This document shows positions 7,114 through 44,457 of a DNA stretch of 64,000 nucleotides, one piece after another (position 1 is the stretch's first letter; each line of letters begins with the position of its first letter). This DNA is from an uncultured Nitrospiraceae bacterium (GTDB taxonomy: Bacteria > Nitrospirota > Nitrospiria > Nitrospirales > Nitrospiraceae). Made by a program: the position numbers and the translations under genes. Location of the stretch: positions 12,265-76,264 of the forward strand of contig CAVQFZ010000019.1 of assembly GCA_963711905.1 (NCBI GenBank), written 5' to 3'. Under the pieces are notes generated by a model. That model did not search any database and was not told the origin of the DNA. It saw only the letters and a program-made list of their open reading frames with translations.

Positions 7114-7896
7114 ATGACCGCGTTCCGCATGATCGCGCCTCGTCTCGCCGCACGAGCAGCGATGCTTCGCCGCTTTCCACGCATCATCCATGACAACGGA
7201 TCTCACCCGATTCTTTCGGCGCTCCTTGCGGCGGCGATGCTGATGCTGTGTCCGGTATCCGGGACGGCCATGGACATCGGTGATGCTCAGGAGATGGTCG
7301 ACGATGCGCGGCTGATCGTCGCGCGAATGCTCGGTCATCCGGACATGAGCTGGTTGCGGAGGAATGTACAGAAAGCCAAGGCCATCTTCATTGCTCCGGC
7401 GATCGTTCGAATCGGATATTTGGCCGGAGTCGCCAAAGGAAAGGGTGTCTTGCTGGTGAAGGACGAACAGACGGGACAGTGGAGCGATCCGGCGTTCTTT
7501 AGCCTGATGGGAGCCGGCGTCGGCCTCCAAATAGGTATCGCTCGCACGGAAGTCGTCGCCCTCATCATGAGCCGCGACGAGGCCGACTCGTTCCTGCGAG
7601 GGCGGTTCGTCTTCGGGCCGGGCGCGGCCTTGGCGATCGGTCCCGTGGGCGCCTCAGCAGGAACGGCGACGACACCGACCCTGCGTCACGGCATCGTGTC
7701 CTTCGCCAAGGCTGGAGGCGCCTATGCCGGCGTGACCCTCCAAGGCGTCATCGCGATGTCCGATGAGTCCGCCAATGAGGCCTATTATGGCTCGGCGATG
7801 CGTTCGGAAGACATTCTTGCCCAACCACAAACTATCCGCCATTGGTATTCGACCCGCATACGCAATACCCTGGACAGAGCGGGAGAAGATCCATGA
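7114..7896 (+). CDS. Lipid-binding SYLF (Ysc84/DUF500) domain protein, paralog 1
   Basis: AKAIFIAP, GKGVLLVKD, WSDPAFFSLMGAGVGLQIG, SFAKAGGAYAGVTLQG, NEAYYG. Confidence 0.9.
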   Translation: MTAFRMIAPRLAARAAMLRRFPRIIHDNGSHPILSALLAAAMLMLCPVSGTAMDIGDAQEMVDDARLIVARMLGHPDMSWLRRNVQKAKAIFIAPAIVRIGYLAGVAKGKGVLLVKDEQTGQWSDPAFFSLMGAGVGLQIGIARTEVVALIMSRDEADSFLRGRFVFGPGAALAIGPVGASAGTATTPTLRHGIVSFAKAGGAYAGVTLQGVIAMSDESANEAYYGSAMRSEDILAQPQTIRHWYSTRIRNTLDRAGEDP

Positions 7897-9113
7897 CGAG
7901 ACTGCTCCGCATGATCACGCTCGTCACGCTGAGCCTTGTATCGCTTTCTTGCCAAACACCGAGCCCTCCGGATCAGCGATCCACCATCGCCGAGGTCTCG
8001 GGGCGGATGCCGGAGACTTTCAAAGTTCTCACCTACAACGCTTTGCATGGATTGCTGACCGGGACATTCGGGGTCGCTCCCGGAGAAACGCCGGAGCAGA
8101 ACGAAATCAGATTCCGTTTGCTGATCGCGCAACTGGCTCGAGTGCAGCCGGATATCGCCTTTCTGCAGGAAGTCAATCCTTTGCCCCGTCGAGCGGAGGC
8201 ATATGTCGGCGCCCTCGGGGAACTGGGACTCGCTTATGATGAGGTCCACCAGGTGGATGCGTGTGGAATCCGCGCCAGTGAGAAACGGGCCCTGTTCACC
8301 GAGTTGAACAACGGGCTGGTCATCCTGGCAAAGAAGCAACTCCGGCTCCGCAAACTCGCAGGGGTGAAACTGAGCGGTGACGCGGGCCAGTGTCGCACGG
8401 AGCGTGGCTTCCAACTCGGAGAGCTGCGGTATGCGCTCATTGCGGAGCTGACGATTCCTGGGAGCAGCCGTAGACATCTGGTCGCCACAACCCACCTGCA
8501 TTCGGGCTTTGAAACGGGCCGGTCATTTCTGGCCTATTTGGCCTCCCTGCATTCGCAAGGCCGTCTTTCCAAGTACCGGTCGTTGCGGTGGAGCGTCGAG
8601 CAGTCGCGGCTGCGGCGGATCGGGGAAATCGACCTGTTGAACCGCGCGTTGCAGAAGCTCAAGCGTGAGGAGGATTATGCGGGGATTCTCTTCGGCGGAG
8701 ACTTGAATTTCGAGTCGGATGACCCCGAATACGAGGAAATTCAGCTTCTCCGGTATGTCGATACGACTCGTGTGAACGGGCAGAATGCCGGTTTCTATAC
8801 CGCCGATCCCCTCCGGAACCGGCTGATACCGGACGCAATGACCTCGCCGCTTCCGTCTGTTCTGACGGATATGATCGGGGGCGAGGGCGACGACCTGCAG
8901 GCCGAGATCACTCGCGCGTACCGGACCGAGATGCAACGTCCAAGACAGATTGATTATTTGATCGAGGACTCCTTTCTCCCCGGCTACTGTCTGACACAAT
9001 CGATTTTCGGGCTGGAGACGGACGAGGCCGGACTCCCGGCGTCCGATCATTACGGTCTCTTGAACTCTTACGTCCTCTCGCCCGAGGTCTGCGCCCGGCC
9101 TGGAACTCTGTAA
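7893..9113 (+). CDS. Endonuclease/exonuclease/phosphatase (EEP) family lipoprotein
   Basis: Lipobox SLSC and motifs TYN, LQEV, THL, GDLN, IDY, SDH. The start overlaps the upstream stop (ATGA). Confidence 0.85.
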   Translation: MTRLLRMITLVTLSLVSLSCQTPSPPDQRSTIAEVSGRMPETFKVLTYNALHGLLTGTFGVAPGETPEQNEIRFRLLIAQLARVQPDIAFLQEVNPLPRRAEAYVGALGELGLAYDEVHQVDACGIRASEKRALFTELNNGLVILAKKQLRLRKLAGVKLSGDAGQCRTERGFQLGELRYALIAELTIPGSSRRHLVATTHLHSGFETGRSFLAYLASLHSQGRLSKYRSLRWSVEQSRLRRIGEIDLLNRALQKLKREEDYAGILFGGDLNFESDDPEYEEIQLLRYVDTTRVNGQNAGFYTADPLRNRLIPDAMTSPLPSVLTDMIGGEGDDLQAEITRAYRTEMQRPRQIDYLIEDSFLPGYCLTQSIFGLETDEAGLPASDHYGLLNSYVLSPEVCARPGTL

Positions 9114-9204
9114 CAGCGGGCTCATACGACGGTGCTGGAGTCCCGGAGAGCGGTTCTCGGGAGCGGAACGCGATATATGTTCGACCGGGAAAATCACAAG
9201 AACA

Positions 9205-11067
9205 ATGGCGACTGCCGGTCGCTGCATGGAGGCTGACATGATTTTCAAAGTGAGCATATGGAAACGGTGCCTGCGGACGCTGGCTCTCGGGTGCTGCGCG
9301 GTCGCCTCGATCACCATCTTGACGCAGGACCTACGGGCCGATACTCCTCAAGCTCCGCCGACGTTGCGGGAGTTGATTGAAAAGTCCAAGGATCAGCCCG
9401 ACGAGAGCTCGGCGGCAGATGTTCCCCGGCTGGGAATTCCGGAAGATCCCTTGGGACGGGGAGTTCCGCGAACAAGCGTGAAAGGATTTCTCATTGCAAC
9501 GAGGAATCACGACTATGTGCGGGCGGCCGAATACCTGGATCTTCGGAACCTTCCCTCCGGGATGACCGAGCAACAGGGGCCCGACCTGGCGCGTCAATTG
9601 AAGATTGTGTTGGATCGGGCGTTTTGGGTCGATCTCGATGTGCTCAGTTCAGAGCCGGAAGGGGACGACAAAGATAATCTGCTGACGGCGCGCGACCGCG
9701 TTGGGTTCGTGTCGACAGCCGATCGAAAGTACGAGATCCTCGTGCAACGGGTTCCGCGCGGGGATGGAGTCTATATCTGGAAATTTTCAGCCCTCACCGT
9801 CGCCGACATACCCGGTCTCTATGCCGATTTCGGATATGGCCCGCTGGAGCGGGTGTTCCCGCCCTGGTTGTTCGATACCTCCGTGTTCGGCATCCATCTC
9901 TGGACTTGGATCGTGTTCATCGTCTTAGGCATCCTTCTCTATCCAGTCGCCATGGTCATCGTCTCGTCGGCGTTGCACATCCTGCGCCGCTTCTATGCCG
10001 ACCTGGCGGATCAGATCGAGCGATTCTTCGGTGGACCGCTCCGGCTGCTGGTCTGGACGGTTCTGGGCCGGTATGGCGCCGAGCTGATCGGATCCTCCGT
10101 TGCAGCGAAAGCCATCATGCAAAGCCGTACGGTCCAGATGGTCGGCTTAGCCTGGATGCTTATGCGCCTCGTGGATTTTCTCGCGCAGCGCGCGAGCACA
10201 GATCTCGACCGCAAGGGTCTTGCCGGCGCCAGGGTGATCCTGACTCCTGTCGCCCGCCTACTCAAGCTGTTGGCCGTCACGGGCGCGACCCTCATGTGGC
10301 TGGATAACGTCGGATATAAAGTGACTACGTTATTGGCCGGCCTCAGCATCAGCGGCGTCGCCGTGGCCCTCGCGTCGCAAAAGAGTCTGGAAAATATCTT
10401 CGGGGCGCTGACGCTCTTTACCGCCCAACCGGTAAAGGTCGGAGATTTCTGCCGCTTCGGCGATAAGATGGGCACGGTCGAGGAGATCGGGCTGCGGGCG
10501 ACCCGCGTCCGCACCGTGGAACGCAGCGTCATCAGCATTGCCAATGCCGAATTCGCCGGCATGCATCTCGACAATCTCTCCAAGCGCGATCGGTTTCTTT
10601 TCAATCCCTGCCTGCAGCTTCGCTATGAGACCACGCCGGATCAGATTCGTTTCATGCTCATCGAGGTGCGGACGATGTTGTATGCGCATCCCAAAATGCT
10701 TTCCGATCCGCTCTGGGTGCGCTTCACGGGGTTCGGAGAGTACTCGCTGAATCTTCAGGTCTTCGCCTATATCGGGGTCACGGACTATAACGAATCGTTG
10801 GAAATTGCCGAAGACGTGAATTTTCGCATCATGGACATCGTGGAGGCGGCGGGATCCGACTTCGCCTTCCCCGCCCAAATCGAGTATTCGCTGCCGGGGA
10901 AGCCGTTTGACGAGAATCGTGCCAAGGCCATCGGGGCTCGCGTGAAAGAATGGAAGGACAACAGAGCGCTGTATCTGCCGAATGTGCCGAAAGAGAAGAT
11001 TGCGCACCTCAAGGCGTCATTGGATTATCCGCCTGCGGGATCGCCCGAGGCCATGGTGGGACGATGA
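9205..11067 (+). CDS. mscS: Mechanosensitive channel, MscS family, with periplasmic N-terminal domain
   Basis: TM helices, then LLAGLSISGVAVALASQKSLENIFG and GDFCRFGDKMGTVEEIGLRATRVRT. Confidence 0.9.
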   Translation: MATAGRCMEADMIFKVSIWKRCLRTLALGCCAVASITILTQDLRADTPQAPPTLRELIEKSKDQPDESSAADVPRLGIPEDPLGRGVPRTSVKGFLIATRNHDYVRAAEYLDLRNLPSGMTEQQGPDLARQLKIVLDRAFWVDLDVLSSEPEGDDKDNLLTARDRVGFVSTADRKYEILVQRVPRGDGVYIWKFSALTVADIPGLYADFGYGPLERVFPPWLFDTSVFGIHLWTWIVFIVLGILLYPVAMVIVSSALHILRRFYADLADQIERFFGGPLRLLVWTVLGRYGAELIGSSVAAKAIMQSRTVQMVGLAWMLMRLVDFLAQRASTDLDRKGLAGARVILTPVARLLKLLAVTGATLMWLDNVGYKVTTLLAGLSISGVAVALASQKSLENIFGALTLFTAQPVKVGDFCRFGDKMGTVEEIGLRATRVRTVERSVISIANAEFAGMHLDNLSKRDRFLFNPCLQLRYETTPDQIRFMLIEVRTMLYAHPKMLSDPLWVRFTGFGEYSLNLQVFAYIGVTDYNESLEIAEDVNFRIMDIVEAAGSDFAFPAQIEYSLPGKPFDENRAKAIGARVKEWKDNRALYLPNVPKEKIAHLKASLDYPPAGSPEAMVGR

Positions 11068-11264
11068 GGAGAGGCCCAACCCTCCGGAATGGGGAATAAT
11101 GAGGGTGAAGCCTCTTATAGGGGCGTATAGCGACCAGCACCGTGTTGCCATGGGTGCAACAGACATGAAGCATGCGCCTTGGTAGATCGTGCGGTCGAAA
11201 CCAGGCGGGCACTTGCGGTGGTGTGCAGCGCAGGTCTTGCTCTCGAGATCTCTACATCAGGGCA

Positions 11265-11281
11265 ACTGTCAACTTGACAGT
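11265..11281. promoter_or_regulatory. Perfect palindrome ACTGTCAA-C-TTGACAGT, candidate operator upstream of the GH63-like gene
   Basis: 8-bp inverted repeat containing a TTGACA hexamer; a related site lies at 28095-28110. Confidence 0.45.
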
Positions 11282-11462
11282 ATCCGCGAGAGGGCGAATC
11301 GGTTATCCTTTCCTCCATTAGAAGCGCCGACAATCGCATGTGGTATGCCGAGGAGGTGTGGGTGGGACCGAACAGAGCGCATAGGATAGATGGCCTCTAT
11401 CGCCGTGAATAATCGGCTTAGATCGGCTTAGAATGGTGTGAACGATTCCACTACATGGAGGT

Positions 11463-14207: not shown

Positions 14208-14219
14208 AGGGATGCTGCC

Positions 14220-14578
14220 ATAAAGAACTGGTCTCGACATCCTCGCCTCGACGAAATCAGCACGTGGGTATGGCTCGGCGAGCTGAGCCGGGCCGGCCCG
14301 GGTCTCGCAGACTCGTTCGAGCGACATGCGGCTCGTGTTGCAGTTGTGGGATGCGAAAACCGGGGGAGTTGGTCTGGGCTTCCGCCGCTGAAACGAGCAT
14401 GCAGAATGAAGCGGTCTCACAAGATCCGGTGTATCTGGAAGATATCGTCCGCGCAACGTTGAGCGGCATGATGGCCGATGTCCTGAACAGAAGGACGGCG
14501 TCCAAGTACACGCCGGTCAATAAATTCCTCGATGATTTGATTAAAGAGGCCATGCCGCAGGAACAGAACGGGAAATAG
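14220..14578 (+). pseudogene. Chimeric relic: alpha-amylase N-terminus joined to the C-terminal third of a lipoprotein paralog
   Basis: 14220-14291 reads IKNWSRHPRLDEISTWVWLGELSR, against MKPWPKFPTIYEINTWVWLHELSE of the gene ending at 31180. From 14299 it is a close copy of 28792-29070 with G5 in place of G4 at 14362-66. Confidence 0.8.
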
Positions 14579-14844
14579 GCCGACAGGGCACTCGCGGTGG
14601 TGTTGCAGTAGATGGAATGCTGCACAGGCATCAGCATCCTTGCAAGACCGCGACATTGTCCCATCTTTCGAAAGGTTCTGCTCACTCGCGCCTGATCACA
14701 ACCGCTCAACCACGGAATCCGGATAATTAACGATGCCGTAACGCTTCATCGGTTGACTTGCTGTTGGTAATGGGGCTAGATTTACGCCAGCTTGCGCGAA
14801 TCGAAAGCAACACAATGGACAGTCAACCACAAGGAGGTTATGTA

Positions 14845-15558
14845 ATGATTCGGTCTTATGAACAGCGGAGGTTCGTCACCTTCACCCGAGCTCTCGTCGC
14901 AGCGGTTCTTACCGGAGGACTGCTTGCGGGTGGCGCCCTGTCCGCCCTCGCCTCTGATTCCGTGGAGCAACAGCAGCTCGTGGACAAGGCACAGGTGACG
15001 CTGCAAAATTTATTCGCCGATCCCAGCGTGGGACCGGCGCTCCGTGACGCGAAAGAGGACACCAAAGCCCTCTTCATCGTGCCGCAATTCATCCGTGGCT
15101 CCTTTATCTTCGGCGGGGCCGGAGGGAGCGGGGTGTTGCTCGTTCGCGACGACCAAACGAAGAACTGGTCCGAGCCGGCTTTTTACAACATCGGCTCTGC
15201 CAGCTTCGGCCTGCAGGCCGGCGCCGATGTCTCGGAGATGATCTTTGTCGTGGTGACCCAGCGAGGGCTGGAACAGTTCTATCGCAACGAATTCAAACTC
15301 GGGCTGGATGCCGGCATGGCGTTAGGCCCGGTCGGTGAAGGAGGGGGCGTAAAAGGGATCACCGCGGACCTCCTCGGCTATGCCAAGAAGAAAGGGGCCT
15401 ACGTCGGAATGTCGGTAGACGGCTCGATCATTACAGTATCCAATGATTCCAATGCGGCCTACTATGGGAAACCTGTGCGGCCGACGGACATCATTGTCAA
15501 GCACGCTGTCAGTAACCCCAAATCCGCCTTCCTCCGCAAAGCTGCCGACAAGTTCTGA
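14845..15558 (+). CDS. SYLF domain protein, paralog 2
   Basis: SD aaggagg, signal peptide, GGAGGSGVLLVRD..WSEPAFYNIGSASFGLQAG. Confidence 0.9.
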   Translation: MIRSYEQRRFVTFTRALVAAVLTGGLLAGGALSALASDSVEQQQLVDKAQVTLQNLFADPSVGPALRDAKEDTKALFIVPQFIRGSFIFGGAGGSGVLLVRDDQTKNWSEPAFYNIGSASFGLQAGADVSEMIFVVVTQRGLEQFYRNEFKLGLDAGMALGPVGEGGGVKGITADLLGYAKKKGAYVGMSVDGSIITVSNDSNAAYYGKPVRPTDIIVKHAVSNPKSAFLRKAADKF

Positions 15559-15576
15559 ACAGGGCATGATCGGTCT

Positions 15577-15616
15577 GCTCCGGACCCTGCGACGGTCGTC
15601 GACAAGGGGCCGGAGC
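15577..15616 (+). other. Conserved 3' stem-loop after SYLF paralog 2
   Basis: gctccgg...cgac-ggtc-gtcg...ccggagc; a homologous hairpin lies at 17456-17496. Confidence 0.6.
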
Positions 15617-15687
15617 ACCAGGCAGACGGTGGCGGGTCCCCGTTCTCTTTCGCCTGCCGAACGAGACAGCAAAATAGGAGGTGAGTC

Positions 15688-16533
15688 GTGACGACCTGGC
15701 TACATCGTCTCGCGATCACGGTTATGGCCGTTGCGGTATTGCTTCCGACTTTTGCACAGGCCGGCGGACTTTCGCTCTACGAGATCGCCACCTCGGACGT
15801 CGGACTCGCGAGCGCAGGATGGGCCGCGCGCGCGCAGGACCCGGCCACGCTCTTGAAAAACCCCGCCGGGATGAGCCGACTGGAAGGCAACCAGTTCCAA
15901 GCCGGCGCCCAGCTCCTCTATGCCAGCCTCGGCTTTAGCCCCGGCGCTGGAACTACCGTGTCCGGCACCGACGGGGGGAACCCGATCGGTCTCCTGCCTG
16001 GGGCGAGCGCGTTCTATGCGCATGGACTGGGCAAAGACGTCAAAGTGGGCCTTGGCCTCTTCTCGAATTTCGGGCTCGTGATGAACTATGACTCCGGGTG
16101 GGTGGGCCGCTACTATGCGCTTGAGAACACCCTGATCGGCGTCAGCGTCACGCCGGGGGCAAGCTATCGCCTCACCGAGCAGTGGTCGATCGGGGCTGCG
16201 GCCAACATCATGATCGGGTACCTGAACTACAACGCCGCTATCAATAACAATGTGCTCGCCGTCACGAATCGCCCCGATGGGGAGATCCAAGCACGAGACA
16301 CGACCGTCGGAGCAGGCGGGAATTTCGGCTTGCTCTATGAGCCGAGGAATGGCACCAGCTACACCGGCGATATGCCGGTGGCTCAGAACCGTGGGCCGTT
16401 GGCCGGAGCGGTTGTCGGATCGTTCCCCGGGACCTACTTCAATTTCTTTCAGGTGAGTTTCATCTGGGGCAAGGGGGCGGGCGGATGGGCCAAGGGGTCT
16501 GGTGGAACCGGATCGACGAAGGAGGCGAGTTGA
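15688..16533 (+). pseudogene. OmpP1/FadL/TodX-family outer-membrane transporter, C-terminally truncated and fused to unrelated sequence
   Basis: GGLSLYE..GLASAGWAARAQDPATLLKNPAGM is the FadL N-terminus. Family similarity ends at FGLLYEPRNGT (~16356), and 281 aa is well short of a full barrel. Confidence 0.75.
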
Positions 16534-16727
16534 TTGATCGAGGGCAAGGGCGGGAAACCGAGCGAGCCGCGTAAGATGAGTGACAACGCGAGCGCGGAGC
16601 TACCAAGAGCTTCACCATGTCCGAACACTTTCTACATTGACTCGTCTTTCATTATTGGCTATGGTCCGTCCCGTTTTGCACGAACGCAAACAACACAGCG
16701 GACAGTCGACCACAAGGAGGTATCAAG

Positions 16728-17438
16728 ATGCAGTTTTGTGAGCAACAGCGATTCGGCACGTTCACCAGAGTTCTCCTCGCAGCGGTTCTTACCGGAACAG
16801 TGGCTGCGGGTGGCGCCGCGCCGGCCCTGGCCGAGGGGGCAGCGGAACAGCAGCAGCTCGTGGACAAGGCCAAGCTGACGCTGGAAGGTCTCCTCGCAGA
16901 TTCCAGCACTGGACCGGCGCTCCGTGACTTGAGACAGGAAACCAAAGCCATCTACATCGTGCCGCAATTCGTCCGTGGCGCCTTTGTCTTCGGCGGGGCG
17001 GGAGGGAGCGGAGTGTTGCTCGTCCGCGACGACCAAACGAAGAAATGGTCCGAGCCGGCGTTTTACAACATCGGCTCTGCCAGCTTCGGCATTCAGGTCG
17101 GAGGCGATGTATCGGAGATCATCTTTATCGTGCGGAACCAGAAAGGACTGGAAAAGTTCTATCGCAGCGAATTCAAACTCGGACTTGACGTCAGCATGGC
17201 GTTAGGCCCGGTCGGTGAAGGAGGGTCCGTGAAAGGTATCACCGCGGATCTTGTCGGCTATGCAAAGAAGAAAGGGGCCTTCGTCGGAATGTCGGTGGAT
17301 GGCTCTATCATCGCGGTCTCCGATGCTTCCAACGAAGCCTACTATGGGAAACCTGTGCGGCCGACGGACATCATCGTCAAGCACACGGTCAGTAATCCCA
17401 AATCCGCCGACCTCCGCAACGCTGCCGCCAAGTTCTGA
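16728..17438 (+). CDS. SYLF domain protein, paralog 3 (close duplicate of 14845..15558)
   Basis: Highly similar DNA and protein, with a shared upstream acagtc.accacaaggagg. Confidence 0.9.
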   Translation: MQFCEQQRFGTFTRVLLAAVLTGTVAAGGAAPALAEGAAEQQQLVDKAKLTLEGLLADSSTGPALRDLRQETKAIYIVPQFVRGAFVFGGAGGSGVLLVRDDQTKKWSEPAFYNIGSASFGIQVGGDVSEIIFIVRNQKGLEKFYRSEFKLGLDVSMALGPVGEGGSVKGITADLVGYAKKKGAFVGMSVDGSIIAVSDASNEAYYGKPVRPTDIIVKHTVSNPKSADLRNAAAKF

Positions 17439-17455
17439 CCGAGCCTGATCGCTCC

Positions 17456-17496
17456 GCTCCGGCATCTGCGACAACTAGTCGACAGGAGGCCGGAGC
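17456..17496 (+). other. Conserved 3' stem-loop after SYLF paralog 3
   Basis: gctccggc...cgac-aacta-gtcg...gccggagc. Confidence 0.6.
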
Positions 17497-17578
17497 ACCT
17501 AGATCAACTTCTACCAGGTCAGATTCATTTGGAAGCGTATAACGTAAACAGGGATCGAAGCAAGCCGGCATTGCGACA

Positions 17579-18790: not shown

Positions 18791-18888
18791 GAATTTCGAT
18801 GTCGCCGGGACCCTGATTGATCCTCGGTGAGAGCATGGATTTCAACATGCCATAAAAATGTTCAGCGGAAAAACAGAGGAGGAACAGT

Positions 18889-26578: not shown

Positions 26579-26584
26579 GTTTGG

Positions 26585-28308: not shown

Positions 28309-29070
28309 ATGAAGTCATGGCCTATGAAATCCGCCGCGTCTGTGGGCTTGTTGTTATGTGTTTTCGTCCTCAGCGGCTGCGCGAGTTCAATTTATGGGTG
28401 GCAGGTGCGAACCAGTTCGACTCCCTTGTCTGCATCGGGTGAGCCTGCGGTCTTTCAGCAGGAACCGGTCGCGCTGCTCCCTGCCGTGACCGTCCCGGCT
28501 CTGCGGGGAAACGAAGTGGCGTTGGCCTATTATCTCCATGAGATCCTGCGCAAGGTCGCGCCCGAATGGAAGCTTGTGTCTCCGCAACAGACAGTGGCGC
28601 GCATCAATGGAGCAGGCTTGGCCGCCGAGTACATGCGCATGAGAGCGGGTCATGAGGAGAGCAACATCTTCGATCGTGATCAGCTGCGCAGGATCGGCGT
28701 GGAAATCGGCGCCCGATATGTATTCCAGCTGCGCATGGCCGCCTTTACGCAAACCATGACGGACCGCTGGAAGTTTCCCGCCCTTGACATACGGGTCTCG
28801 CAGACTCGTTCGAGCGATATGCGGCTCGTATTGCAGTTGTGGGATGCGAAAACCGGGGAGCTGGTCTGGTCCTCCGCCGCTGAAACGAGCATGCAGAACG
28901 AAGCGGTCTCCCAAGATCCGGTGTATCTGGAAGATATCGCTCGCGCAACGTTGGGCGGCATGATTGCCGATTTTCTGAACAGAAAAACGGCGTCCAAGTA
29001 CACGCCGGTCAATAAAGTCCTCGACGATTTGATTAAGGAGGCCATGCCGCAGGAACAGAATGGAAAATAG
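28309..29070 (+). CDS. Uncharacterised lipoprotein
   Basis: Lipobox LSGC and MRLVLQLWDAKTGELVWS, reminiscent of CsgG/LpoB-like alpha/beta lipoproteins. Confidence 0.75.
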   Translation: MKSWPMKSAASVGLLLCVFVLSGCASSIYGWQVRTSSTPLSASGEPAVFQQEPVALLPAVTVPALRGNEVALAYYLHEILRKVAPEWKLVSPQQTVARINGAGLAAEYMRMRAGHEESNIFDRDQLRRIGVEIGARYVFQLRMAAFTQTMTDRWKFPALDIRVSQTRSSDMRLVLQLWDAKTGELVWSSAAETSMQNEAVSQDPVYLEDIARATLGGMIADFLNRKTASKYTPVNKVLDDLIKEAMPQEQNGK

Positions 29071-29392
29071 GCCGACGGGAACTCGGCACAAAACAATCAA
29101 GGAGGAAGACTCAATGTTGAACAAACTCTCGATGGGAGCGGCGGTGTTGCAGTAGACGGAATGCTGCACCGGCATCAGCAGCTTTCTTCGTCAAGTTCAA
29201 GGTCTGAATAAGGGAGGAGTCGAAAAGGTTCGCTATCGCATCAAAGACACTGTCTTTGTGGACAGCCCTGGCACGTTCAAACTGCCGTTCGATGAAAAAG
29301 GGTGGAATCGACCTTGGTTTGGGCCAACAGCCTGAGCAACAAATAGCCGATTGAAAGCTCTCCGGGATTCCGCAGTTGGTCAGTTTCTTCTC

Positions 29393-29476
29393 GTCATTCC
29401 CGCGTGTTTCAAGCGGGAATCCAGGAAATCCGGAACGTCTGGATGCCCGCTTCCGCGCCGCAGGCGCGAGCATGAC
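29393..29476. repeat. REP-like palindromic element GTCATTCCCGCG..GCGGGAATCCAG..CTGGATGCCCGC..GCATGAC
   Basis: Nested inverted repeats of a widespread ATTCCC-N-GGGAAT miniature repeat type; absent from the homologous block at about 14640. Confidence 0.7.
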
Positions 29477-29710
29477 CTCATCTCTGCAAGGCCGCGACAC
29501 TGGCCCATCTTTCGAAAAGTTCCGCTCACTCGCACCTGATCACATCCGCTTAAATACGGAATCTTGGTAATTTAACGATGCCTTAACGCTCAGGTGTTGA
29601 CTCGTGGTTGTTGGTGGGCTATTGCCCACGCCGGCACCTGGAAGCAAGCACTCCGGTCGTACCGCCGCGCATAAAGTATCGCGGCCGGTTTCCGTGTGCC
29701 TCGCAGCCAT

Positions 29711-31239: not shown

Positions 31240-31956
31240 CTATTTCAATAACTTCTCCGCCGCCTCTCGAAGGTCGATCGATTTCGGATTGCCGACTTCC
31301 TTCTTCACAATGATGTCCGTCGGCCGCACGTCTTTGCCGTAGTAGGCCTTATTGCTGTCGTTGGAGATGGTCACCATCGATCCGTCCAGGGCAATCCCGG
31401 CAAAGGCCCCTTTCTTTTTCGCATAGGCCACCATATCGGCCGTGATGCCTTTCGCCGATGTGCCGGCGCCGACCGGACCGACGGCCACTCCGACATTGGC
31501 CCCGAGCTTGAAGTCGTTGGTGTAGAACTGCTCCAGCCCTTTCTGCGTCCTCACCACCATGACAATTTCGGAAACATCGGCTCCGACCTGCAGGCCAAAG
31601 CTCGCCGATCCCATGTTGTAGAAGAGCGGATCGGACCACTTCCCGGTTTGCTCGTCCCGCGCGATCAGGATGCCGCTCCCGCCCGCGCCCCCGAACATGA
31701 AGGCGCCGCGCATGAATGACGGGACGAGGAACAGCCCCTTGGCATCTTCGCCGAGTTGTTTGATCGATCCTTTCAACCCGCCGTCGGCTGTGAACCCCTC
31801 CAACGTCATCTTGGCCTTGTCCACGAGCTGCTGTTGCTGGGAGAAATCCTCAGTGCGGGCGGTGACAGGCATGAGCGAAACAAGACGGGTCAGGACCGCC
31901 GCTACCAACGTCCCTCCCGTTCGTCTTCCCGGATGGTTGTCGATTGAAGCAGACAT
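31240..31956 (-). CDS. SYLF domain protein, paralog 4
   Basis: GGAGGSGILIARD..WSDPLFYNMGSASFGLQVG..AYAKKKGAFAGIALDG. Confidence 0.9.
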   Translation of the reverse strand: MSASIDNHPGRRTGGTLVAAVLTRLVSLMPVTARTEDFSQQQQLVDKAKMTLEGFTADGGLKGSIKQLGEDAKGLFLVPSFMRGAFMFGGAGGSGILIARDEQTGKWSDPLFYNMGSASFGLQVGADVSEIVMVVRTQKGLEQFYTNDFKLGANVGVAVGPVGAGTSAKGITADMVAYAKKKGAFAGIALDGSMVTISNDSNKAYYGKDVRPTDIIVKKEVGNPKSIDLREAAEKLLK

Positions 31957-32215: not shown

Positions 32216-32689
32216 CTAGTAGGTCAACGGAATGGCCTTGGCCAACTCGAAGTTCACGATCGCCCGAACCTTGTTTTCGATCTGAATGTAGCGTGCCGTC
32301 TTGGACCAAGGCAGCACTTTGCTGATCTTATCGGCATAGGTGCGTTTCAGTTTCATTTCGGATTCCTGGGCCGACAGCGCATCGCCCATGAGCTTCTTCG
32401 CCGTGTTGTCCTCGACCGGACCCTTATTGAAGGCATCCGCATACTCTTTGATCGTGTTTCCCAGGGTCTGATTAATCTTGCCGAGTTCTTTTTGATATTC
32501 GTCGTACAGCGGCCAGAAGGCCTTCGCTTCCGCGTCGGTGAGATTCATGTTCGAAGAGACCAGCAACTTTTTATCGGCCTTCACCTTCTGCATCATGATT
32601 TCCATGTTGGTGTCGGTTGCGCTCTGCGCAAATGCCGGCGCGGCAATGAATACGGTAATGGCCAGAATGATCGGTGTGAATACTCGCAT
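32216..32689 (-). CDS. Exported Spy/CpxP-like helical protein, paralog 3
   Basis: MRVFTPIILAITVFIAAPAFA signal peptide; VKADKKLLVSSNMNLTDAEAKAFWPLYDEYQKEL. Confidence 0.75.
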   Translation of the reverse strand: MRVFTPIILAITVFIAAPAFAQSATDTNMEIMMQKVKADKKLLVSSNMNLTDAEAKAFWPLYDEYQKELGKINQTLGNTIKEYADAFNKGPVEDNTAKKLMGDALSAQESEMKLKRTYADKISKVLPWSKTARYIQIENKVRAIVNFELAKAIPLTY

Positions 32690-32948
32690 GCAACACTCTC
32701 CTCTCACAGTATGGGTTAATTGGGGAAAATACGGAATGACTCCTCGCAAGATACCTCTGAACGGGTCGGCCACCGACGGCAGATGACGGTGCGGACGACC
32801 ATCGCGCCGTCATCGGACATCACTCGGGACCTTTTCGATGGAGGATCAGCCGAATCACCATAGCGAATTGCGATAGCCCGGTCAATGGAGAAAAACACAC
32901 ATGCCTGATTTCATGTTCGGACCGGCCGAGGCGCCTGTGAGACCACAG

Positions 32949-35778: not shown

Positions 35779-35813
35779 ATCAAGCCGTAGGGCTCCACAA
35801 CAGGAGGCTGACA

Positions 35814-36068: not shown

Positions 36069-36322
36069 TGGGCGACGGTTCAGCCTCAGGCGGGGAGTCC
36101 TCACAAACTATGACGTTGAGTAGTGCGTTGCAAAGGCGACCGAAATCTGTTCGTCCGCAACACATTGCACCGATAGATCATATTTTGATATTTCCCGCGA
36201 GGGCGGCGATCGACCCACCATACACACATCTACAGAGAGGGAACCGAATGCACGCATCGGCCCGGTTGTCGGTGATAGTCCAAAGCCTTGCAGGGCTCGC
36301 AGCAGGCATCGGCTGCCAAACG

Positions 36323-37741: not shown

Positions 37742-38198
37742 ATGGCGCCATGGACCAACCGGCCACAACGGTCGCCAAGGAGGATGCGATGGAAAAATAG
37801 CGTGCTGTTGACGGCTGCGACGGCGCTTAGTTCTGCTCACTTTGACAGGGTTTCTGGGAGCGAAGGCGGGATGCCGGACGTCATTTCTATGAGGACATGC
37901 ATTGCGAGCACCCACCACGAAGTGAACGGGGAATGAACTCTAACTTTTTCCCTCACATACATCTCTTCATCCGCTAGGAAGGCAACTAGGTTCTTGCTAC
38001 TGGCTCCCTTGCCGAGGTATCCTGAACCATAAGGCGACATGGAACCCAGAACCGTGCGAGAAGATCCACCCCTACTCTGGATGCACAGCGCCCACAACCA
38101 ATGCTTGGGTTCGCAGGAGGCGTTCGCGGCACATACGTGAGGACGAGGCAACACCATCCGAGGGTATCGACCCCTAAATAACAGAAGGAGGAGCGCCG

Positions 38199-38792
38199 AT
38201 GAAGACATTTCGTGTGTCTGTACCAGCCGTTTTGTTAATGGCAGCCATGGCATGTGCGAGTTCCAGTGCTTTGGCAGCCGAGGAGAAGGAGAAGGATTTT
38301 TCGTCCACGCTCGACAAATTCAAATCTTCAGAGCAGGTGAAACCGTTTTTTGAGAATGCGTATGGATATGCGGTCTTTCCCCTCATCGGGAAAGGGGGTC
38401 TGGGGGTCGGCGGTGCATATGGGCAGGGACAAGTCTACCGCGAAGGGAAGGTGACCGGCAAAACAAGGCTGATCAAGCTCTCATTCGGCTTTCAGGCTGG
38501 CGGCCAGGGGTTCTGTGAAATCATCTTCTTCAAAGATCAGCGTGCCTATGATGAGTTTACGAGTGGGGACTTTGCGTTCGACGCCACAGCCTCAGCAGTC
38601 GCCATCACCGCCGGGGCGCAAGCCACGACCGGGACAACAGGAGGATCAGCGGGAATGAGTGCGGGACCGAAATCCGGGGCACAAGTCGGCCTCGGCTACA
38701 CCAAGGGAATGGCTGTCTTTACCCAAGCGATCGGCGGTCTGATGTACGAGGCGGCCATTGGAGGTCAAAAGTTCAGCTTTGAACCCCTCTAA
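38199..38792 (+). CDS. YSC84-related short SYLF protein, paralog 5
   Basis: FENAYGYAVFPLIGKGGLGVGGAYGQG..SFGFQAGGQ..GGLMYEAAIGGQKFSF. Confidence 0.88.
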   Translation: MKTFRVSVPAVLLMAAMACASSSALAAEEKEKDFSSTLDKFKSSEQVKPFFENAYGYAVFPLIGKGGLGVGGAYGQGQVYREGKVTGKTRLIKLSFGFQAGGQGFCEIIFFKDQRAYDEFTSGDFAFDATASAVAITAGAQATTGTTGGSAGMSAGPKSGAQVGLGYTKGMAVFTQAIGGLMYEAAIGGQKFSFEPL

Positions 38793-38815
38793 ACAACCGG
38801 GATTGTGTCATGGAG

Positions 38816-38850
38816 GTGGGCGAGGTGCAGTCGCGGATAACCTCGCCCAC
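38816..38850 (+). terminator. Hairpin downstream of SYLF paralog 5 (copy at 44482-44513)
   Basis: gtgggcgaggt..acctcgcccac, an 11-bp stem. Confidence 0.55.
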
Positions 38851-39059
38851 AAGCCTCTCATCCATCAGCATGGCCTCAAGCCGCTTGCTGCGCTGTCTCT
38901 ACTTCCCCCTCCTAACAGCAACTCGCCATTCCCTCAAATATCAGTAGTTGTTGGATGCAAGCATGAAGTGCGCCGTCCTGCACCCGGGTGTCCTTCGCAT
39001 GAGCCGCTTTGCGACTCCCGGGTCTCACCCCTCCTTCCAGGTAGGAATCTCTCGCTGGA

Positions 39060-40070
39060 TTAGAAGTGAAGCGACAGTCCTCCGACTAAGTGATTTATGT
39101 GATAATCGGCGTTGATGCCGGCTGCTCCGAGCGGGCCATTGCCCGTGAAATCGAACGCCGCATAATTGTATTTATATTCACCAAACAGCGCGACGCGCTC
39201 GGTGACAAAATAGCGCATACCAGCCAAGGCATTGAAGCCTGGCACGGCGTTGTCCGAGGCGCTGCTGCCATTGTTTGACAGATTGGCGAAGAAGACCCCA
39301 AGCCCGACCCCTCCATACGGTTGCAGCCGGCAAAAGTCTCGCTCATAGTGCGTTTCATAGCGAATCTCTCGGTCGACCTTCACATCCCGCTCCGTTCGCG
39401 TTTCTGTTCGCACCGGTTTCGTTTCACAGCCGAATTTGAGCCGGCCGACTACATTGAAGGCCAAGGTCGTGACTCGCTGGTGGACGCCGGGCAACTGACC
39501 GTCCTGCTTCACGTGGGGGGTCGTATTGTACGCCTCCATCTCCAGGCCCAACCAATCCAGTCGATCGCCGAAGAAATGCCCGACCTTTCCCCCATAGACA
39601 ACCGAATCCGCCAGATCGCGATCAGTGCCCTGAAGCCCGGACAGGAATCCCGCGCCTTCCACGCCACTGAACCCCCCGCCGAATGTATAGCCGCCGAACC
39701 CGGCCACGTACGTTTCGCTCGGGCGCACCAGTTTATGTTCAACGATCGTTTCCGGCCCGGCTAGCCCTGACGCCGCTAAAATGGAAGCCGCTTCCGCCTT
39801 TCGCGCTTGAATCTCCTCGCGACATTGCGGTGTGAGCGTGTGTTCGTTGGCTTCATAACATTTGCGGAGACGCCCGCCACCCGGCTGAACGCCCACGCAG
39901 AGTTTATCAAGCGCGTTACGACACTCAGGATTGATGCTTTGGTATTCTGGCACCGCCACCGGCTCCACCGGCTCCACAGGCTGGGAATAGGCGACCGGCA
40001 ACAGCATGACCATGAAGGCTCCCCAGCACAAGAGCGCTGTGCCACTCACGGTTAATTGTCCTCGCTTCAT
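39060..40070 (-). CDS. Outer-membrane beta-barrel protein with N-terminal Cys-rich (GLG1/Cys_rich_FGFR-like) repeat
   Basis: Signal peptide, ECRNALDKLCVGVQPGGGRLRKCYEANEHTLTPQCRE, then barrel strands (YVAGFGG, LQPYGGVGLG, LFGEYKY) and a C-terminal LSLHF. Confidence 0.75.
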   Translation of the reverse strand: MKRGQLTVSGTALLCWGAFMVMLLPVAYSQPVEPVEPVAVPEYQSINPECRNALDKLCVGVQPGGGRLRKCYEANEHTLTPQCREEIQARKAEAASILAASGLAGPETIVEHKLVRPSETYVAGFGGYTFGGGFSGVEGAGFLSGLQGTDRDLADSVVYGGKVGHFFGDRLDWLGLEMEAYNTTPHVKQDGQLPGVHQRVTTLAFNVVGRLKFGCETKPVRTETRTERDVKVDREIRYETHYERDFCRLQPYGGVGLGVFFANLSNNGSSASDNAVPGFNALAGMRYFVTERVALFGEYKYNYAAFDFTGNGPLGAAGINADYHINHLVGGLSLHF

Positions 40071-40466
40071 TTGAACACCTCCATTTTAGATGAGATAATG
40101 AGCACATCACTATTCATAAATGTAAGACGTGGATTTGCCTACTGGTATAAACTCTAGGGGTACGAATCATATGGCCATTGGAGGTGAGGACACAGTGGAT
40201 TATGAAGACTTGCTCGCCGAGGACGCTGACATCAGCAGAACTCTTCCCACGGCGGACGGTGGCGACAAGAAGATGAATACCCTTACCAACGCCAGGATTG
40301 GTCTATCCGTGAGGACGACCAGCGGAGATCCCCGCATGAACATCCTGGCACTGTTTATAATGACACTGGGGATCACAAATCAGATCACAAGGATTGCTTA
40401 AGTTAGTCATGGCAAGGGAAATACCCAACTCCATCAGTAGAAGACGCAATTCCGTTGTAGTCTGAA

Positions 40467-40506
40467 TTTACCTCACTTCACTGAACTTAACTTCACTTCA
40501 TTTCAG
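40467..40506. repeat. Degenerate pentamer tandem repeat (TTCAC consensus, 8 units)
   Basis: tttac ctcac ttcac tgaac ttaac ttcac ttcat ttcag. Confidence 0.55.
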
Positions 40507-41018
40507 TCCGCTTTGTCGCTCTCCTTAACACCATAATAACACCGGACATCCACTTGAACCGGAACACCCCATCCCCTCCCACCATGACAAAGGGATGGTA
40601 GCAGGCGAGATTGAAGCCTCTACAGGCTCAAAGACTATAGCTCACGGTCCAGTCCAATCGCTTCCACTCAACCGCTTACAAGGGGGCCAGAAATTGACGG
40701 AGGAACCCATTAAACAAGATCGCACACAATAGTTCTGCCACAGGAGCCACAATAATAGTCGTGATGAAACTGTGGGGCCCGCTTGGTGGCGTATGATGGC
40801 TGAGCGTGACTATGACTCTTAGAGAGATTAATCAAGGGGAAGCGGTGTTTTGGGCGATCGAGCAATGCGATACATGGGATCAGTACAGCTAAACTTGTTC
40901 TGCAGTGCCAATCGTAGGTGGCGGTGCGGGTGGCGAGTCCATGACCCGCCACCCGGTCAAAAGCACGTCGACGATGTCAAGATCACCGCTCTGAACGATC
41001 GACGTCAATGCCGTACAA

Positions 41019-41873
41019 TTACCTCGTCACAATGATTTCCACACGCCGATTCTTCGCCCGACCTTCGCCTGTTGTGTTGGGCATCACAGGCTTGGTCTCA
41101 GCAGCTCCCATGGCATGGGCGCCGGATAGACCGCCGCTTTCCAACGCCTCGACAGCGCTTTGGGCACGTGCTTCGGATAATTCTTTGTTCGAGGGGAATT
41201 TCTTCTTGAGCGCGCCCAAGATCGGCCGGTTGTCGGTATGCCCCTCGACATGAACCTTATACTCCGGGAAATCGTGGAGGATGGCACCGACCTGCTTGAG
41301 CGTCTCCGCTCCAGCCGGCTTGAGTTGGTCTTCACCGGACCCAAACAAATAGCCGGAGGCCAAATTCATGAGGAGGCGTTCGTTATTGAGGTCTATGGTG
41401 ATGTGCTGTTCTTCGATTTGCGGCTTGAGCGCCCGGACTAATCCACGTTCCGCCTCCTTCAATCTCGCCATTTCTGTGGAATATTCCTTCTCCCGGTCGG
41501 CTAGTTGCGCCTCCAGATCTGAGTTGCGTTGCCTAGCAGCGGCCAGGTCCGCCGCCAGGAGACTTGAGGCGGCAAGCTGTCCGTTTAGATCGTTCACCTG
41601 GCTACTGAGCACCTGGTTTTGGCGCCGAGCGGTTTCCAGTTCGTTGGCCAGCCGTTGACGGTCCCCCTCTAGGGCCGCAAGACGGGCCGCCGAAGCCAAT
41701 GCAACCTCACCTGATACATCGGGTGCCGCTGCCTTGGCCACAGATGGGCATCCACTCTTTGGATGATAGCCATACCACCGATCTACACACACATCGGACT
41801 GTTTGAAATACGATGAACATCCGACCAGAAGCACAACGCTGGCCACAAGGCCAATGGGTTTATACGTCTGCAT
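41019..41873 (-). CDS. OmpA/MotB-family peptidoglycan-binding lipoprotein with coiled coil
   Basis: Lipobox LVGC, LFGSGEDQL, VEGHTDN, LSEARA and NRRVEI. Confidence 0.9.
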   Translation of the reverse strand: MQTYKPIGLVASVVLLVGCSSYFKQSDVCVDRWYGYHPKSGCPSVAKAAAPDVSGEVALASAARLAALEGDRQRLANELETARRQNQVLSSQVNDLNGQLAASSLLAADLAAARQRNSDLEAQLADREKEYSTEMARLKEAERGLVRALKPQIEEQHITIDLNNERLLMNLASGYLFGSGEDQLKPAGAETLKQVGAILHDFPEYKVHVEGHTDNRPILGALKKKFPSNKELSEARAQSAVEALESGGLSGAHAMGAAETKPVMPNTTGEGRAKNRRVEIIVTR

Positions 41874-41937
41874 GCGATTCCCCCTTTCATAGAGTGCATG
41901 ACGCCGCGGGAACTGATGCCTCGGCTGTCATGCATGG

Positions 41938-43452
41938 TTATGGGTCAGGCTCGACTCTTTTACTGACGCCTACCGTTTGAGCCATAGGATCTTGTGGGCT
42001 GTTTTTGGCGTCATGCTGCGAAACTCCGGTGCGGACGGCTCGCGGCTGAGCTCTATGCTCCTCCAGCAGCGTGTATGCGACATAGTACTTGTAGATGTTG
42101 GAGATATAGGTCACGGTTTCTGGCCCGATCCGTTGCCCGGCAATGATTTCAACGTTGTTGAACCACACGTAAGGATTGAGCCCGCGCCTTTCCGCTTCCT
42201 TTTGGAGCTTCAGCACTCTGGCTGGTCCAGCGTTGTATGCCGCAAATGAAAACAGGATCTTGTTACGAGCGTCCATCGGTTGGTCCGCGAAGTACTGACG
42301 ACGCATAAAGTTCATGTACTTGACGCCGGCGTGGATATTCGGTTCCACTTTTGTAATGTCACCGGTAGCCATGTCCTTGCCAGTGGCCGGCATGATCTGC
42401 ATGACTCCGATCGCGCCGACATGACTGATGGCGTTCTGATTCAGCAGGGATTCCTGGTAGCCCTGCGCCATCATCAACAAATAGTCCATGTCGTACTGAG
42501 CACCGTACTTGCGAAACAATGCGACGGTCGAGTCGAACTTCTTGATCTCGGCCGCCGAGGTTGCAGGTTTGACGATCCGCGGACTCCCGGTATATCTGCT
42601 GAGCAGGGCTTTCCCGAACGGCGATGTCTGTCCATAGCCCTTGGCAAATGCGGCAATCTCTGCTTGCAGTTTGGGGCTCGCTTTTCGGAGCATCCAGGCG
42701 ATGTCCCCGCCCGTGTGGATCACCACGCCTCGATGCGGTTTCAGCTTTGTGAACACGCGCGCCCACAATAGCGCCTGATAGCGATCCACAACGACGATCC
42801 CCACGAGGCCGGCGTTTACCATCTCCAGCAGGTCGTCGTCCTGCAGATCTTCCGGCGCGGCTTTCAGAGTCACCGGCCGCTTGTGCTCGCTATTGAAACG
42901 CTCGTTGAGACGTTCGAGATGTGTCCAATAGCTCGATGATTGGCGGACAAACACTTCCTGGCCTGAGAGATCGTCAACTGAGGCCAACTCCGGTGAGCCG
43001 GGTCCGGTCACCGCAATTTCCTGTATGCCTCGAAAAAACGGGGCTCCGAAATCGACTTGTGCGAGACGTTCCGGTGTCACCGTCAAAATACCGGCGGCTA
43101 TGTCCCCTCTGCCCTCTAAGAGCCTCGGGATGAGCTGGTCCCGCGATGTCGGTATGAAGACCACATGAATGCGGGTATGCTTCCCCGGCGTCTGATACCG
43201 TTCGTTGATTTCTCCCTCGAAGGCCTTGAAGAGTTCATATTCCGCACCGGTTTGGCGAAGTCCTAAGAGCCAGTATGAAGTGCGCGACGGCGCCACCAGC
43301 ACACGAATGATACGGCGCTGGATCATGCCGTCGAGATCACCCGTCCAGCGCTGGAAGGCGGCAGCCTCTGTCAGTTCGTTCTGATCGGTAGCAACGGCTG
43401 AGGAAGGGAGAGCGACGCAGACACATATGAGACCGAGAAGAATCCTGTTCAA
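41938..43452 (-). CDS. MltF-like lytic transglycosylase (periplasmic-binding domain + SLT)
   Basis: PBP-like N-domain and SLT motifs YQES, GVMQIMP, AYNAG. TTG43452 start preferred because it gives a signal peptide. Confidence 0.85.
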   Translation of the reverse strand: MNRILLGLICVCVALPSSAVATDQNELTEAAAFQRWTGDLDGMIQRRIIRVLVAPSRTSYWLLGLRQTGAEYELFKAFEGEINERYQTPGKHTRIHVVFIPTSRDQLIPRLLEGRGDIAAGILTVTPERLAQVDFGAPFFRGIQEIAVTGPGSPELASVDDLSGQEVFVRQSSSYWTHLERLNERFNSEHKRPVTLKAAPEDLQDDDLLEMVNAGLVGIVVVDRYQALLWARVFTKLKPHRGVVIHTGGDIAWMLRKASPKLQAEIAAFAKGYGQTSPFGKALLSRYTGSPRIVKPATSAAEIKKFDSTVALFRKYGAQYDMDYLLMMAQGYQESLLNQNAISHVGAIGVMQIMPATGKDMATGDITKVEPNIHAGVKYMNFMRRQYFADQPMDARNKILFSFAAYNAGPARVLKLQKEAERRGLNPYVWFNNVEIIAGQRIGPETVTYISNIYKYYVAYTLLEEHRAQPRAVRTGVSQHDAKNSPQDPMAQTVGVSKRVEPDP

Positions 43453-43875
43453 ATTGCGCCCCTCGAAAGACACGAAAGAGCTTGAGACGGCGGCATCAAC
43501 CTGGCTCTGGGAGCTGTAGGCATAAGACTTTCCGATCAGAAAGTCAACTCCCGCGTGATCGGCGCAAGAAAGCACGCTGACTGTCGGGAAGTGCCTGCAC
43601 ACCATGCCCTCCGCCAACTCCGATAACCATGCATAGGTACCGGTGCTCAAGGAATGACCTTTACTTGCCTTCCTCAAATACATCTTGCCACTGGTTCGTT
43701 TATTGAGCTATCGTGAACGAGAAGGCGAGGGGGAACCGTGAGAGAAGAGCGCCCCTTCGCTGGAGACACAGTGCCCACCCCAATCATGAGTTCGAATGGG
43801 GGCGCGCACGGTTAATACGTAAGGAGAGACAACAGCGCCCGAGGATAGAAAACCTAATCCCGCAAGGAGACGACT

Positions 43876-44457
43876 ATGAGGACATTTCGTGTATCTGTAC
43901 CAGCCGTTTTGTTCATGGCCGCCATGGCCTGGGTGAGTTCCAGTACGTTGGCAGCCGAGGATTTTTCGTCCACGATCGACAAATTCAAATCTTCAGAACA
44001 AGTGAAACCGTTTTTTGAGAATGCGTACGGCTATGCCGTCTTTCCCCTCATCGGGAAAGGGGGGCTGGGAGTCGGTGGCGCATACGGGCAGGGACAAGTC
44101 TACCGCGACGGAAAGGTTACGGGTAAATCCAAGCTGGTCAAGCTCTCCTTTGGCTTTCAGGCTGGCGGCCAGGGGTTCTGTGAAATCATCTTCTTTAAAG
44201 ATCAGCGTGCCTATGATGAGTTTACGAGTGGGGACTTTGCGTTCGACGCCACAGCCTCAGCAGTCGCCATCACCGCCGGGGCGCAAGCCACGACCGGGAC
44301 AACAGGAGGATCCGCGGGAGCCAGTGCCGGACCGAAATCCGGTGCACAACTCGCAGCAGACTACCGCAAAGGAATGGCTGTCTTTACCCAAGCGATCGGT
44401 GGTCTGATGTACGAGGCGGCCATTGGAGGTCAAAAGTTCAGCTTTGAACCCCTCTAA
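43876..44457 (+). CDS. YSC84-related short SYLF protein, paralog 6 (near-identical duplicate of 38199..38792)
   Basis: Long identical DNA stretches shared with 38199..38792, including downstream non-coding DNA. Confidence 0.9.
   Translation: MRTFRVSVPAVLFMAAMAWVSSSTLAAEDFSSTIDKFKSSEQVKPFFENAYGYAVFPLIGKGGLGVGGAYGQGQVYRDGKVTGKSKLVKLSFGFQAGGQGFCEIIFFKDQRAYDEFTSGDFAFDATASAVAITAGAQATTGTTGGSAGASAGPKSGAQLAADYRKGMAVFTQAIGGLMYEAAIGGQKFSFEPL

Follow-up and report, generated by a model that had tools for sequence, protein, structure and literature searches.

We analysed a 64-kb stretch of DNA (hereafter the window; contig C19:12265-76264) from G000, a Nitrospira metagenome-assembled genome (MAG) of 4.35 Mb in 27 contigs with 94.7% completeness and 3.5% contamination, for its genes encoding SYLF-domain proteins (Pfam PF04366). 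A preliminary description of this DNA had reported six SYLF genes within 37 kb, and six intact open reading frames indeed lie at the positions it gave. Four of them are of a long type, with products of 236-260 aa: S1 (7114-7896, + strand), S2 (coding sequence (CDS) 14845-15558, +, within a duplicated unit at 14792-15619), S3 (CDS 16728-17438, +, duplicated unit 16676-17499) and S4 (31240-31956, - strand, 31956 being its start). These four exceed the PF04366 gathering threshold of 25.1 bits by a wide margin, scoring 88.3, 100.9, 102.0 and 112.6 bits, respectively, and homologues of S4 in Nitrospira, including one from Nitrospira japonica at 75% identity, are annotated as 'lipid-binding SYLF domain-containing protein'. 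The other two are of a short type (193-197 aa): S5 (CDS 38199-38792, +, in a repeat unit at 37992-38870 that includes a leader and a 3' hairpin) and S6 (CDS 43876-44457, +, repeat unit 43683-44532), which lies beside a gene for a BepA-like M48 protease.

S5 and S6 scored below the Pfam threshold, at 21.2 and 21.5 bits, and aligned to profile positions 2-59 only; most short-type homologues at 63-72% identity do have a precomputed PF04366 match. In phmmer comparisons with solved SYLF proteins, the short type matched BPSL1445 of Burkholderia pseudomallei (7OFN, E=1.6e-9, S5 query) and BefA of Aeromonas (7RFQ, E=1.3e-5). The same two proteins headed the PDB fold matches of an AlphaFold2 (AF2) model of S5 (BefA, E=3.1e-5; BPSL1445, E=1.5e-4), with EipA third at E=0.09. 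Because both sequence and predicted fold match 7OFN and 7RFQ, we count the two short genes as SYLF genes despite their sub-threshold Pfam scores.

BPSL1445, the first bacterial SYLF domain to be solved, offers a close comparison for the whole set: like the window proteins it is exported and consists almost wholly of one SYLF domain, and it was also matched by S4 (E=1.3e-7) and by a profile of all six genes (E=3.4e-18). It differs in being a lipoprotein, whereas no canonical lipobox occurs in the six SYLF genes (where S5 has a Cys in its signal segment, S6 has Trp), and all six reach only 50-67 bits on its NCBIfam equivalog model, NF049970, for which the cut-off is 200 bits. The long type, moreover, adds about 35 C-terminal residues relative to BPSL1445. 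The N-termini of S1-S6, judged by eye, show a hydrophobic segment followed by an AxA-type cleavage site that is kept in orthologues, in agreement with the earlier claim that all six carry export signals. Published work (PMC3105542) describes signal peptides as typical of bacterial SYLF members and phospholipid binding as a property of SYLF domains.

Searching the 4.35-Mb assembly by tblastn and with Pfam revealed no further SYLF copies outside the window. All six genomic copies thus lie within 37 kb, far from a chance placement.

The six genes span a wide range of divergence. Protein identity is about 21% between short and long genes, about 30% between S1 and the remaining long genes, about 58-61% between S4 and either S2 or S3 (DNA about 64%), 76-77% between S2 and S3 (DNA 83-84%), and 90-92% between S5 and S6, whose DNA is 85% identical over a 0.88-kb unit and 91.5% identical in the CDS. 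The proposed division into a long and a short class with a broad range of divergence (about 21% to 92% at the protein level) therefore stands, and the description of some copies as near-identical was overstated, the closest pair, S5/S6, sharing 92% of protein and 85-91% of DNA positions. These figures bear on whether the similar copies could be collapsed or chimeric strain variants produced by assembly or binning. The genome is a MAG in 27 contigs with 3.5% contamination, and S5 and S6 share stretches of more than 100 bp at 100% identity that could mislead an assembler. All six copies are complete, however, and each is flanked by sequence of its own; the patatin and M48 flanks of the S5-S6 segment are syntenic with those in the related genome G083; and the multi-copy layout recurs in complete or near-complete relatives. 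We consider such an artefact very improbable. Assembly duplicates in particular were ruled out, as even the most similar pair shows differences at 9-15% of its bases and is uniquely flanked.

A self-blastn comparison showed that the S2 and S3 units are 83% alike in DNA with the promoter-like leader included, and promoter-like hexamers precede both S2 (14753-14782) and S3 (16637-16665). The leaders of S5 and S6 are 61% identical, and identity varies along the remainder of their repeat. Over CDS bases 150-330, S5 is 96% identical to the copy in G083 and 89% identical to S6; in the 3' part, which contains more than 100 consecutive identical bases, the relation is reversed (93% for S5/S6, 88% for S5 and the G083 copy). 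Because identity is mosaic along the repeat unit, we read the pair as indicating that the 3' half was homogenised by gene conversion following an older duplication or an import of S6. There is also a trace of a seventh SYLF gene. A tblastn search with an intact, very divergent short gene of G083 returned one match in G000, a remnant at 37750-37831 (+) that covers roughly the first 30 codons, split between two frames. In the relatives G082, G083 and G060 this gene is intact and lies between a patatin gene and the S5-type gene.

We then asked how common such clusters are. Among 110 genomes of the same genus, 30 had a PF04366 match, and 17 of these 30 had exactly one; four to eight matches were found in nine of the 110 (G000, G002, G021, G060, G082, G083, G084, G094 and G095). 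At the level of the phylum, 105 of 301 sampled Nitrospirota genomes had a match, nearly always a single one, and about eight had four or more; N. japonica has seven. High SYLF copy counts are therefore rare across both genus and phylum. They recur in the closest relatives: G082, G083 and G060, whose closest orthologues are about 85-92% identical in protein, each carry 6-8 SYLF copies in a cluster with the same gene set in rearranged order, comprising S1, S4 and two or three copies of the S2/S3 type, with one S5-type gene in addition in the G083 cluster. Individual orthologues are 84-86% identical for S1 (G060, G082 and G083), 92% for S2 (G083), 88-89% for S3 (G083, G082 and G060) and 87-89% for S4. 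Because the cluster is shared with these three relatives, it predates this species, and for the same reason the amplification is not specific to G000. The preliminary description had named routine occurrence in related genomes as one observation that would undo its reading; this holds in part, the cluster being present in these three relatives, with 6-8 copies, and such counts being rare in the wider genus and phylum.

Trees of 67 and 88 SYLF proteins resolved the history of the set further. Every window paralogue but S6 paired with its orthologue in the relatives at a Shimodaira-Hasegawa-like approximate likelihood ratio support (SH-aLRT) of at least 95. The S1 clade has sister genes in N. 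japonica and Nitrospira sp. NFB02, among others, and the S4 clade, the S2/S3 clade and further N. japonica and NFB02 genes form one group. Within the S2/S3 clade there are three sub-lineages, S2, S2b and S3, all of them present in G083 and S2b missing from G000. S5 and S6 form a short clade with single genes of G083, G094 and G084, while the very divergent short type adjoining the S5 type in G082, G083 and G060 forms a clade of its own. N. japonica has representatives of both the S1 group and the S4/S2/S3 group, together with short SYLF genes of a different clade, spread over more than 300 kb. A further clade, which we call type 0, consists of a single-copy gene located elsewhere in the genome (23 rows from 21 genus genomes), and this is the form that most SYLF-bearing members of the genus have; it is present in G082, G083 and G060 and was not found in the G000 assembly, where at 94.7% completeness either loss or a gap could account for this.

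Read in this way, the trees place S1, S4 with S2/S3, and the short type in at least three old subfamilies, which split before the Nitrospira genera did, and limit real local duplication to S4→S2/S3 and S5/S6. The repeated local amplification proposed earlier thus survives for the S2/S3 and S5/S6 units, which are real duplicates, and fails for the cluster at large, in which three old subfamilies are co-located and did not arise from one amplification. A single recent amplification was ruled out by the trees together with the orthologues in relatives. The locus is an old, maintained expansion of the SYLF gene family, and no new kind of system.

To assess selection, we computed ratios of nonsynonymous to synonymous substitution rates (dN/dS) by the Nei-Gojobori method for gene-level pairs, comparing G000 with its G082 and G083 orthologues and S2 with S3 and S5 with S6. 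Ratios were 0.13-0.33 for orthologue pairs, 0.48 for S2/S3 and 0.18 for S5/S6. By these ratios all copies are under purifying selection, with S2/S3 somewhat more relaxed; gene-level positive selection was not seen, dN/dS being at most 0.48 in every pair. Fixed differences between paralogue lineages were denser in the N-terminal helical segment, where they occupied 8-9 of 40 positions, than in the SYLF core, with 7-12 of 125. In eukaryotic SH3YL1, lipid binding requires an N-terminal amphipathic helix (PMC3105542).

These patterns speak to dosage selection, the first explanation that the preliminary description had offered, in which copies were multiplied and kept to raise a single SYLF activity. 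Such a history would fit S5 and S6, which remain 92% identical in protein and whose 3' halves were homogenised by gene conversion, a process that can accompany selection for dose, and it would fit S2, S2b and S3 as a young tandem family. The long paralogues, however, are 30-77% identical to each other and have their own orthologues at 84-92% in relatives as well as their own conserved neighbours (see below); only one S5-type gene is kept in relatives; and the near-identical arrays normal for dose amplification are not seen in the window. Because the paralogues have their own orthologues in relatives and dN/dS lies at 0.13-0.48, the comparison favours retention of diverged copies over dosage. 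For the long genes in particular, selection for dosage is unlikely, and as an explanation of the locus we regard it as improbable.

Diverged, exported SYLF proteins might instead be secreted weapons that permeabilise the membranes of competing microbes, with paralogues generated by an arms race. The precedent is BefA, a secreted, lipid-binding protein that binds membranes and permeabilises liposomes and bacterial cells, and for which its authors suggested an antimicrobial role (bioRxiv 10.1101/2022.03.24.485696). BefA resembles the short type in sequence and came first among the fold matches to the S5 model, and SYLF copy number varies among relatives. The resemblance has its bounds: BefA carries extra N-terminal helices, has been studied as a host-acting factor and is only about 21% identical, and the Nitrospira proteins are not known to permeabilise membranes. 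An arms race also sits poorly with dN/dS values of at most 0.48 in all tested pairs, which give no sign of gene-level diversifying selection, and with orthologues that are stably conserved between species. In Pfam scans, the neighbouring genes offered neither an immunity-like partner nor a secretion system other than Sec, and the neighbours are envelope maintenance genes. We therefore think a role as a weapon unlikely, if somewhat less so than dosage.

A further possibility is that the cluster arrived horizontally as a block. GC content at third codon positions (GC3) is about 0.60 in S5 and S6, compared with 0.70-0.77 in the long genes, and homologues of the short type at 63-70% identity occur in Planctomycetota/Desulfobacterota, in entries labelled Sedimentisphaerales and Desulfatiglandaceae; the short type may have been imported from elsewhere. 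Between S5 and S6 lies a 5-kb cassette (39060-43683, -) that encodes, by Pfam, a Cys-rich outer-membrane β-barrel, an OmpA-like protein and an MltF-like transglycosylase. Its GC content is 0.53-0.56 against about 0.59 for the window, and searches for its MltF-like gene in G082, G083, G094, G084 and G060 were negative. Arrival of the cluster as an island could account for these features of the short genes and the cassette. No tRNA gene was found in the window, however, and no integrase appeared among the proteins scanned; relatives show synteny for the long genes and for most of the neighbours, which have family-typical orthologues across Nitrospiraceae. Imports would amount to S5/S6 and the cassette at most, and acquisition of the cluster as a block has, in our estimate, only a small chance of being correct. 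A barrel related to that of the cassette adjoins a SYLF gene and an X gene (see below) in genome G385 (locus L065).

Several SYLF subfamilies have a neighbour of their own, S1 among them. The S1 stop codon overlaps the start codon of a gene for an EEP-family lipoprotein (7893-9113, +; PF03372, 37.6 bits against a cut-off of 24.5) in the sequence ATGA at 7893-7896, with GGGAGA upstream, an arrangement in which S1 is predicted to be translationally coupled to the EEP gene. The SYLF-EEP pair occurs at 14 Nitrospiraceae/Nitrospirota loci, drawn from the S1 clade and its sister clade, and is absent from more distant homologues in other phyla. The EEP proteins have a signal segment ending in Cys, which is kept in the orthologues examined.

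A second recurrent neighbour is a family of exported proteins that we call X, present in three copies related by self-blastn. X1 (5873-6355, +) encodes a 160-aa, Spy/CpxP/CnrX-like protein; its tandem copy X2 (6390-6962, +) has a Cys after the signal segment, which makes it a possible lipoprotein, and ends 151 bp upstream of S1; X3 (32216-32773, -) lies 260 bp upstream of S4. The order X1-X2-S1-EEP is conserved in G082, G083 and G060, and the order X3-MscS-S4 is found in G082 and G083. X genes are present in 20 of the 110 genus genomes, 15 of which also have SYLF genes; they adjoin the island-type SYLF genes of G000, G082, G083, G060, G094, G084, G116 and G385, and do not adjoin type 0. No Pfam or NCBIfam model matched X above threshold, X3 giving a weak match to PF13801 (Metal_resist; E=0.028, 15 bits against a cut-off of 29.2). 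An AF2 model of X (predicted local distance difference test score (pLDDT) 82) has four helices, and its best PDB folds were CnrX/NccX, STV, ZraP and CpxP (E of at least 0.017, target-normalised template modelling (TM) scores of about 0.65-0.73). Like the Spy/CpxP/ZraP/CnrX proteins, X is exported, all-helical and about 130 residues long, and some of its homologues are named 'Spy/CpxP family' by the Joint Genome Institute (JGI); its LTXXQ motifs, however, are not canonical. The family looks like an undescribed branch of Spy/CpxP/CnrX-like proteins. In the protein collection searched, 2,867 sequences are homologous to it at E ≤ 0.001, yet the family has no Pfam match.

Between S2 and S3 lies a gene for a half-size FadL/TodX-like outer-membrane protein (15688-16533, +; PF03349, 87.8 bits, profile positions 3-215 of 421). 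A FadL-like gene also stands beside S2/S3-type SYLF genes in G082, G083 and G095, at 78-91% identity over 218-224 of 281 residues, and the gene probably encodes a genuine outer-membrane protein of short length rather than being a recent pseudogene. S4, in turn, sits 60 bp upstream of a GH13 alpha-amylase-family gene. The M48 peptidase beside S6 (44693-46198) scored best on the model of BepA, the β-barrel assembly-enhancing protease, at 146 bits, below the equivalog cut-off; in N. japonica and NFB02 alike, a long-type SYLF gene also has an M48 gene beside it (loci L060 and L070).

Pfam scans of the neighbourhood identified AsmA, an outer-membrane barrel, MscS, GH63 and GH13 glycosidases, an FGE-sulfatase pair, a Gly-zipper lipoprotein, an alpha/beta hydrolase with Lnb_N, an LpoB-like lipoprotein, Usp, DUF4403, patatin, OmpA, MltF and the BepA-like M48 protease. 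The region is a conserved, rearrangement-prone cell-envelope neighbourhood, and the presence of Usp, MscS and the BepA-like protease hints at regulation by stress. In the corresponding region of relatives, which we inspected in G082 (C10:590001-670000) and G083 (C7:970001-1050000; loci L001-L008), the abundance of paralogues extends beyond SYLF, the MscS, GH63, LpoB-like, EEP, patatin and sulfatase genes being duplicated as well. Within the window, just upstream of S2, positions 14299-14774 repeat, at 81-93% identity, sequence from 28792-29618 that comprises the 3' end of the gene for the LpoB-like lipoprotein and the spacer downstream of it. This copy is the mark of a rearrangement, or of a deletion, by which the GH63 gene became joined to the S2-S3 block.

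Each SYLF subfamily thus keeps its own neighbour: S1 the EEP gene, S2/S3 the FadL-like gene, with X ahead of both S1 and S4. We hypothesized that the SYLF proteins, once exported via Sec, would bind phospholipid of periplasmic membranes, and that each may act as a lipid-docking or lipid-presenting partner of an envelope enzyme or transporter encoded next to it, so that the paralogues would have divided labour among partners and not multiplied dose. Given the known lipid-binding domain and the nature of the partner genes, the most likely role of these proteins is to dock lipid in the periplasm for the enzyme or transporter encoded alongside. As a whole, we think the following picture reasonably probable: in one sub-lineage of Nitrospira, several exported SYLF proteins from at least three old subfamilies have been kept in a conserved, rearrangement-prone envelope region; their copy number was shaped by tandem duplications of some age, by losses and by a single partial gene conversion; purifying selection acts on the copies; and lipid docking for neighbours is their putative role. 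The evolutionary component of this picture is well supported: the envelope region houses a set of diverged, exported SYLF proteins that is old, has been maintained and is still changing.

A number of points count against this interpretation. Gene adjacency is no proof of physical or functional coupling. The trees were built by a 'quick' method and contain several long branches. The AF2 model of S5 is mediocre, with a pLDDT of 62. Signal peptides were assessed by eye, and S4 of G000 has an Arg within the hydrophobic segment. For the partners, a profile of nine EEP sequences found sphingomyelinases C as the best solved relatives, at a weak E of about 0.002, and the assignment of X to Spy/CpxP combines weak fold matches (E of about 0.02) with the name that a source gives some of its homologues.

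Two further comparisons with better-known proteins can be drawn. EipA of Brucella (DUF1134, 5UC0) is a small periplasmic β-barrel with a SYLF-like fold; structurally similar to SYLF, it is a periplasmic envelope-integrity factor (PMC10787603). S3 matched the Pfam EipA model weakly (E=0.0018). EipA belongs to another Pfam family, is single-copy and lies at a cell-cycle locus, and its similarity to the window genes is marginal. Eukaryotic SH3YL1/Ysc84 belong to the same domain family as the window proteins, PF04366; they are cytosolic, multidomain and phosphoinositide-specific, whereas bacterial SYLF proteins are exported and single-domain. SH3YL1 also works with a 5-phosphatase partner of the EEP fold, SHIP2. 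The latter is named among the expressed proteins in PMC3105542. The SH3YL1-SHIP2 pairing echoes the S1-EEP gene pair by analogy only, and there is no sign that the Nitrospira EEP acts on inositol lipids.

A broader proposal would extend lipid docking to bacterial SYLF proteins in general: they might be modular lipid adaptors of the periplasm, every one of them serving a single enzyme or transporter of the envelope. Its clearest case would be the conserved two-gene Nitrospiraceae unit of an S1-type SYLF protein and a coupled, sphingomyelinase-C-like EEP lipoprotein, often with a Spy/CpxP-like protein ahead, which might form an undescribed system for phospholipid-head-group processing or envelope stress, a counterpart of the eukaryotic pairing of SYLF with an EEP-fold lipid phosphatase. 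We offer this tentatively, and on present evidence would lean against it.

In the library that we searched, no publication linked Nitrospira with SYLF. The function of bacterial SYLF proteins is almost unexplored, the literature that we found comprising two solved structures, the host-acting BefA and the structural link to EipA. The conserved pairings described here, of SYLF with an EEP lipoprotein, of SYLF with a FadL-like barrel and of a Spy-like protein with SYLF, make that function testable, and N. japonica, a complete named genome with an S1-type SYLF gene beside an EEP gene, is a practical gene source for biochemistry. For the organisms themselves, the finding is that nitrite oxidisers of one group retain 6-8 diverged SYLF copies under purifying selection.

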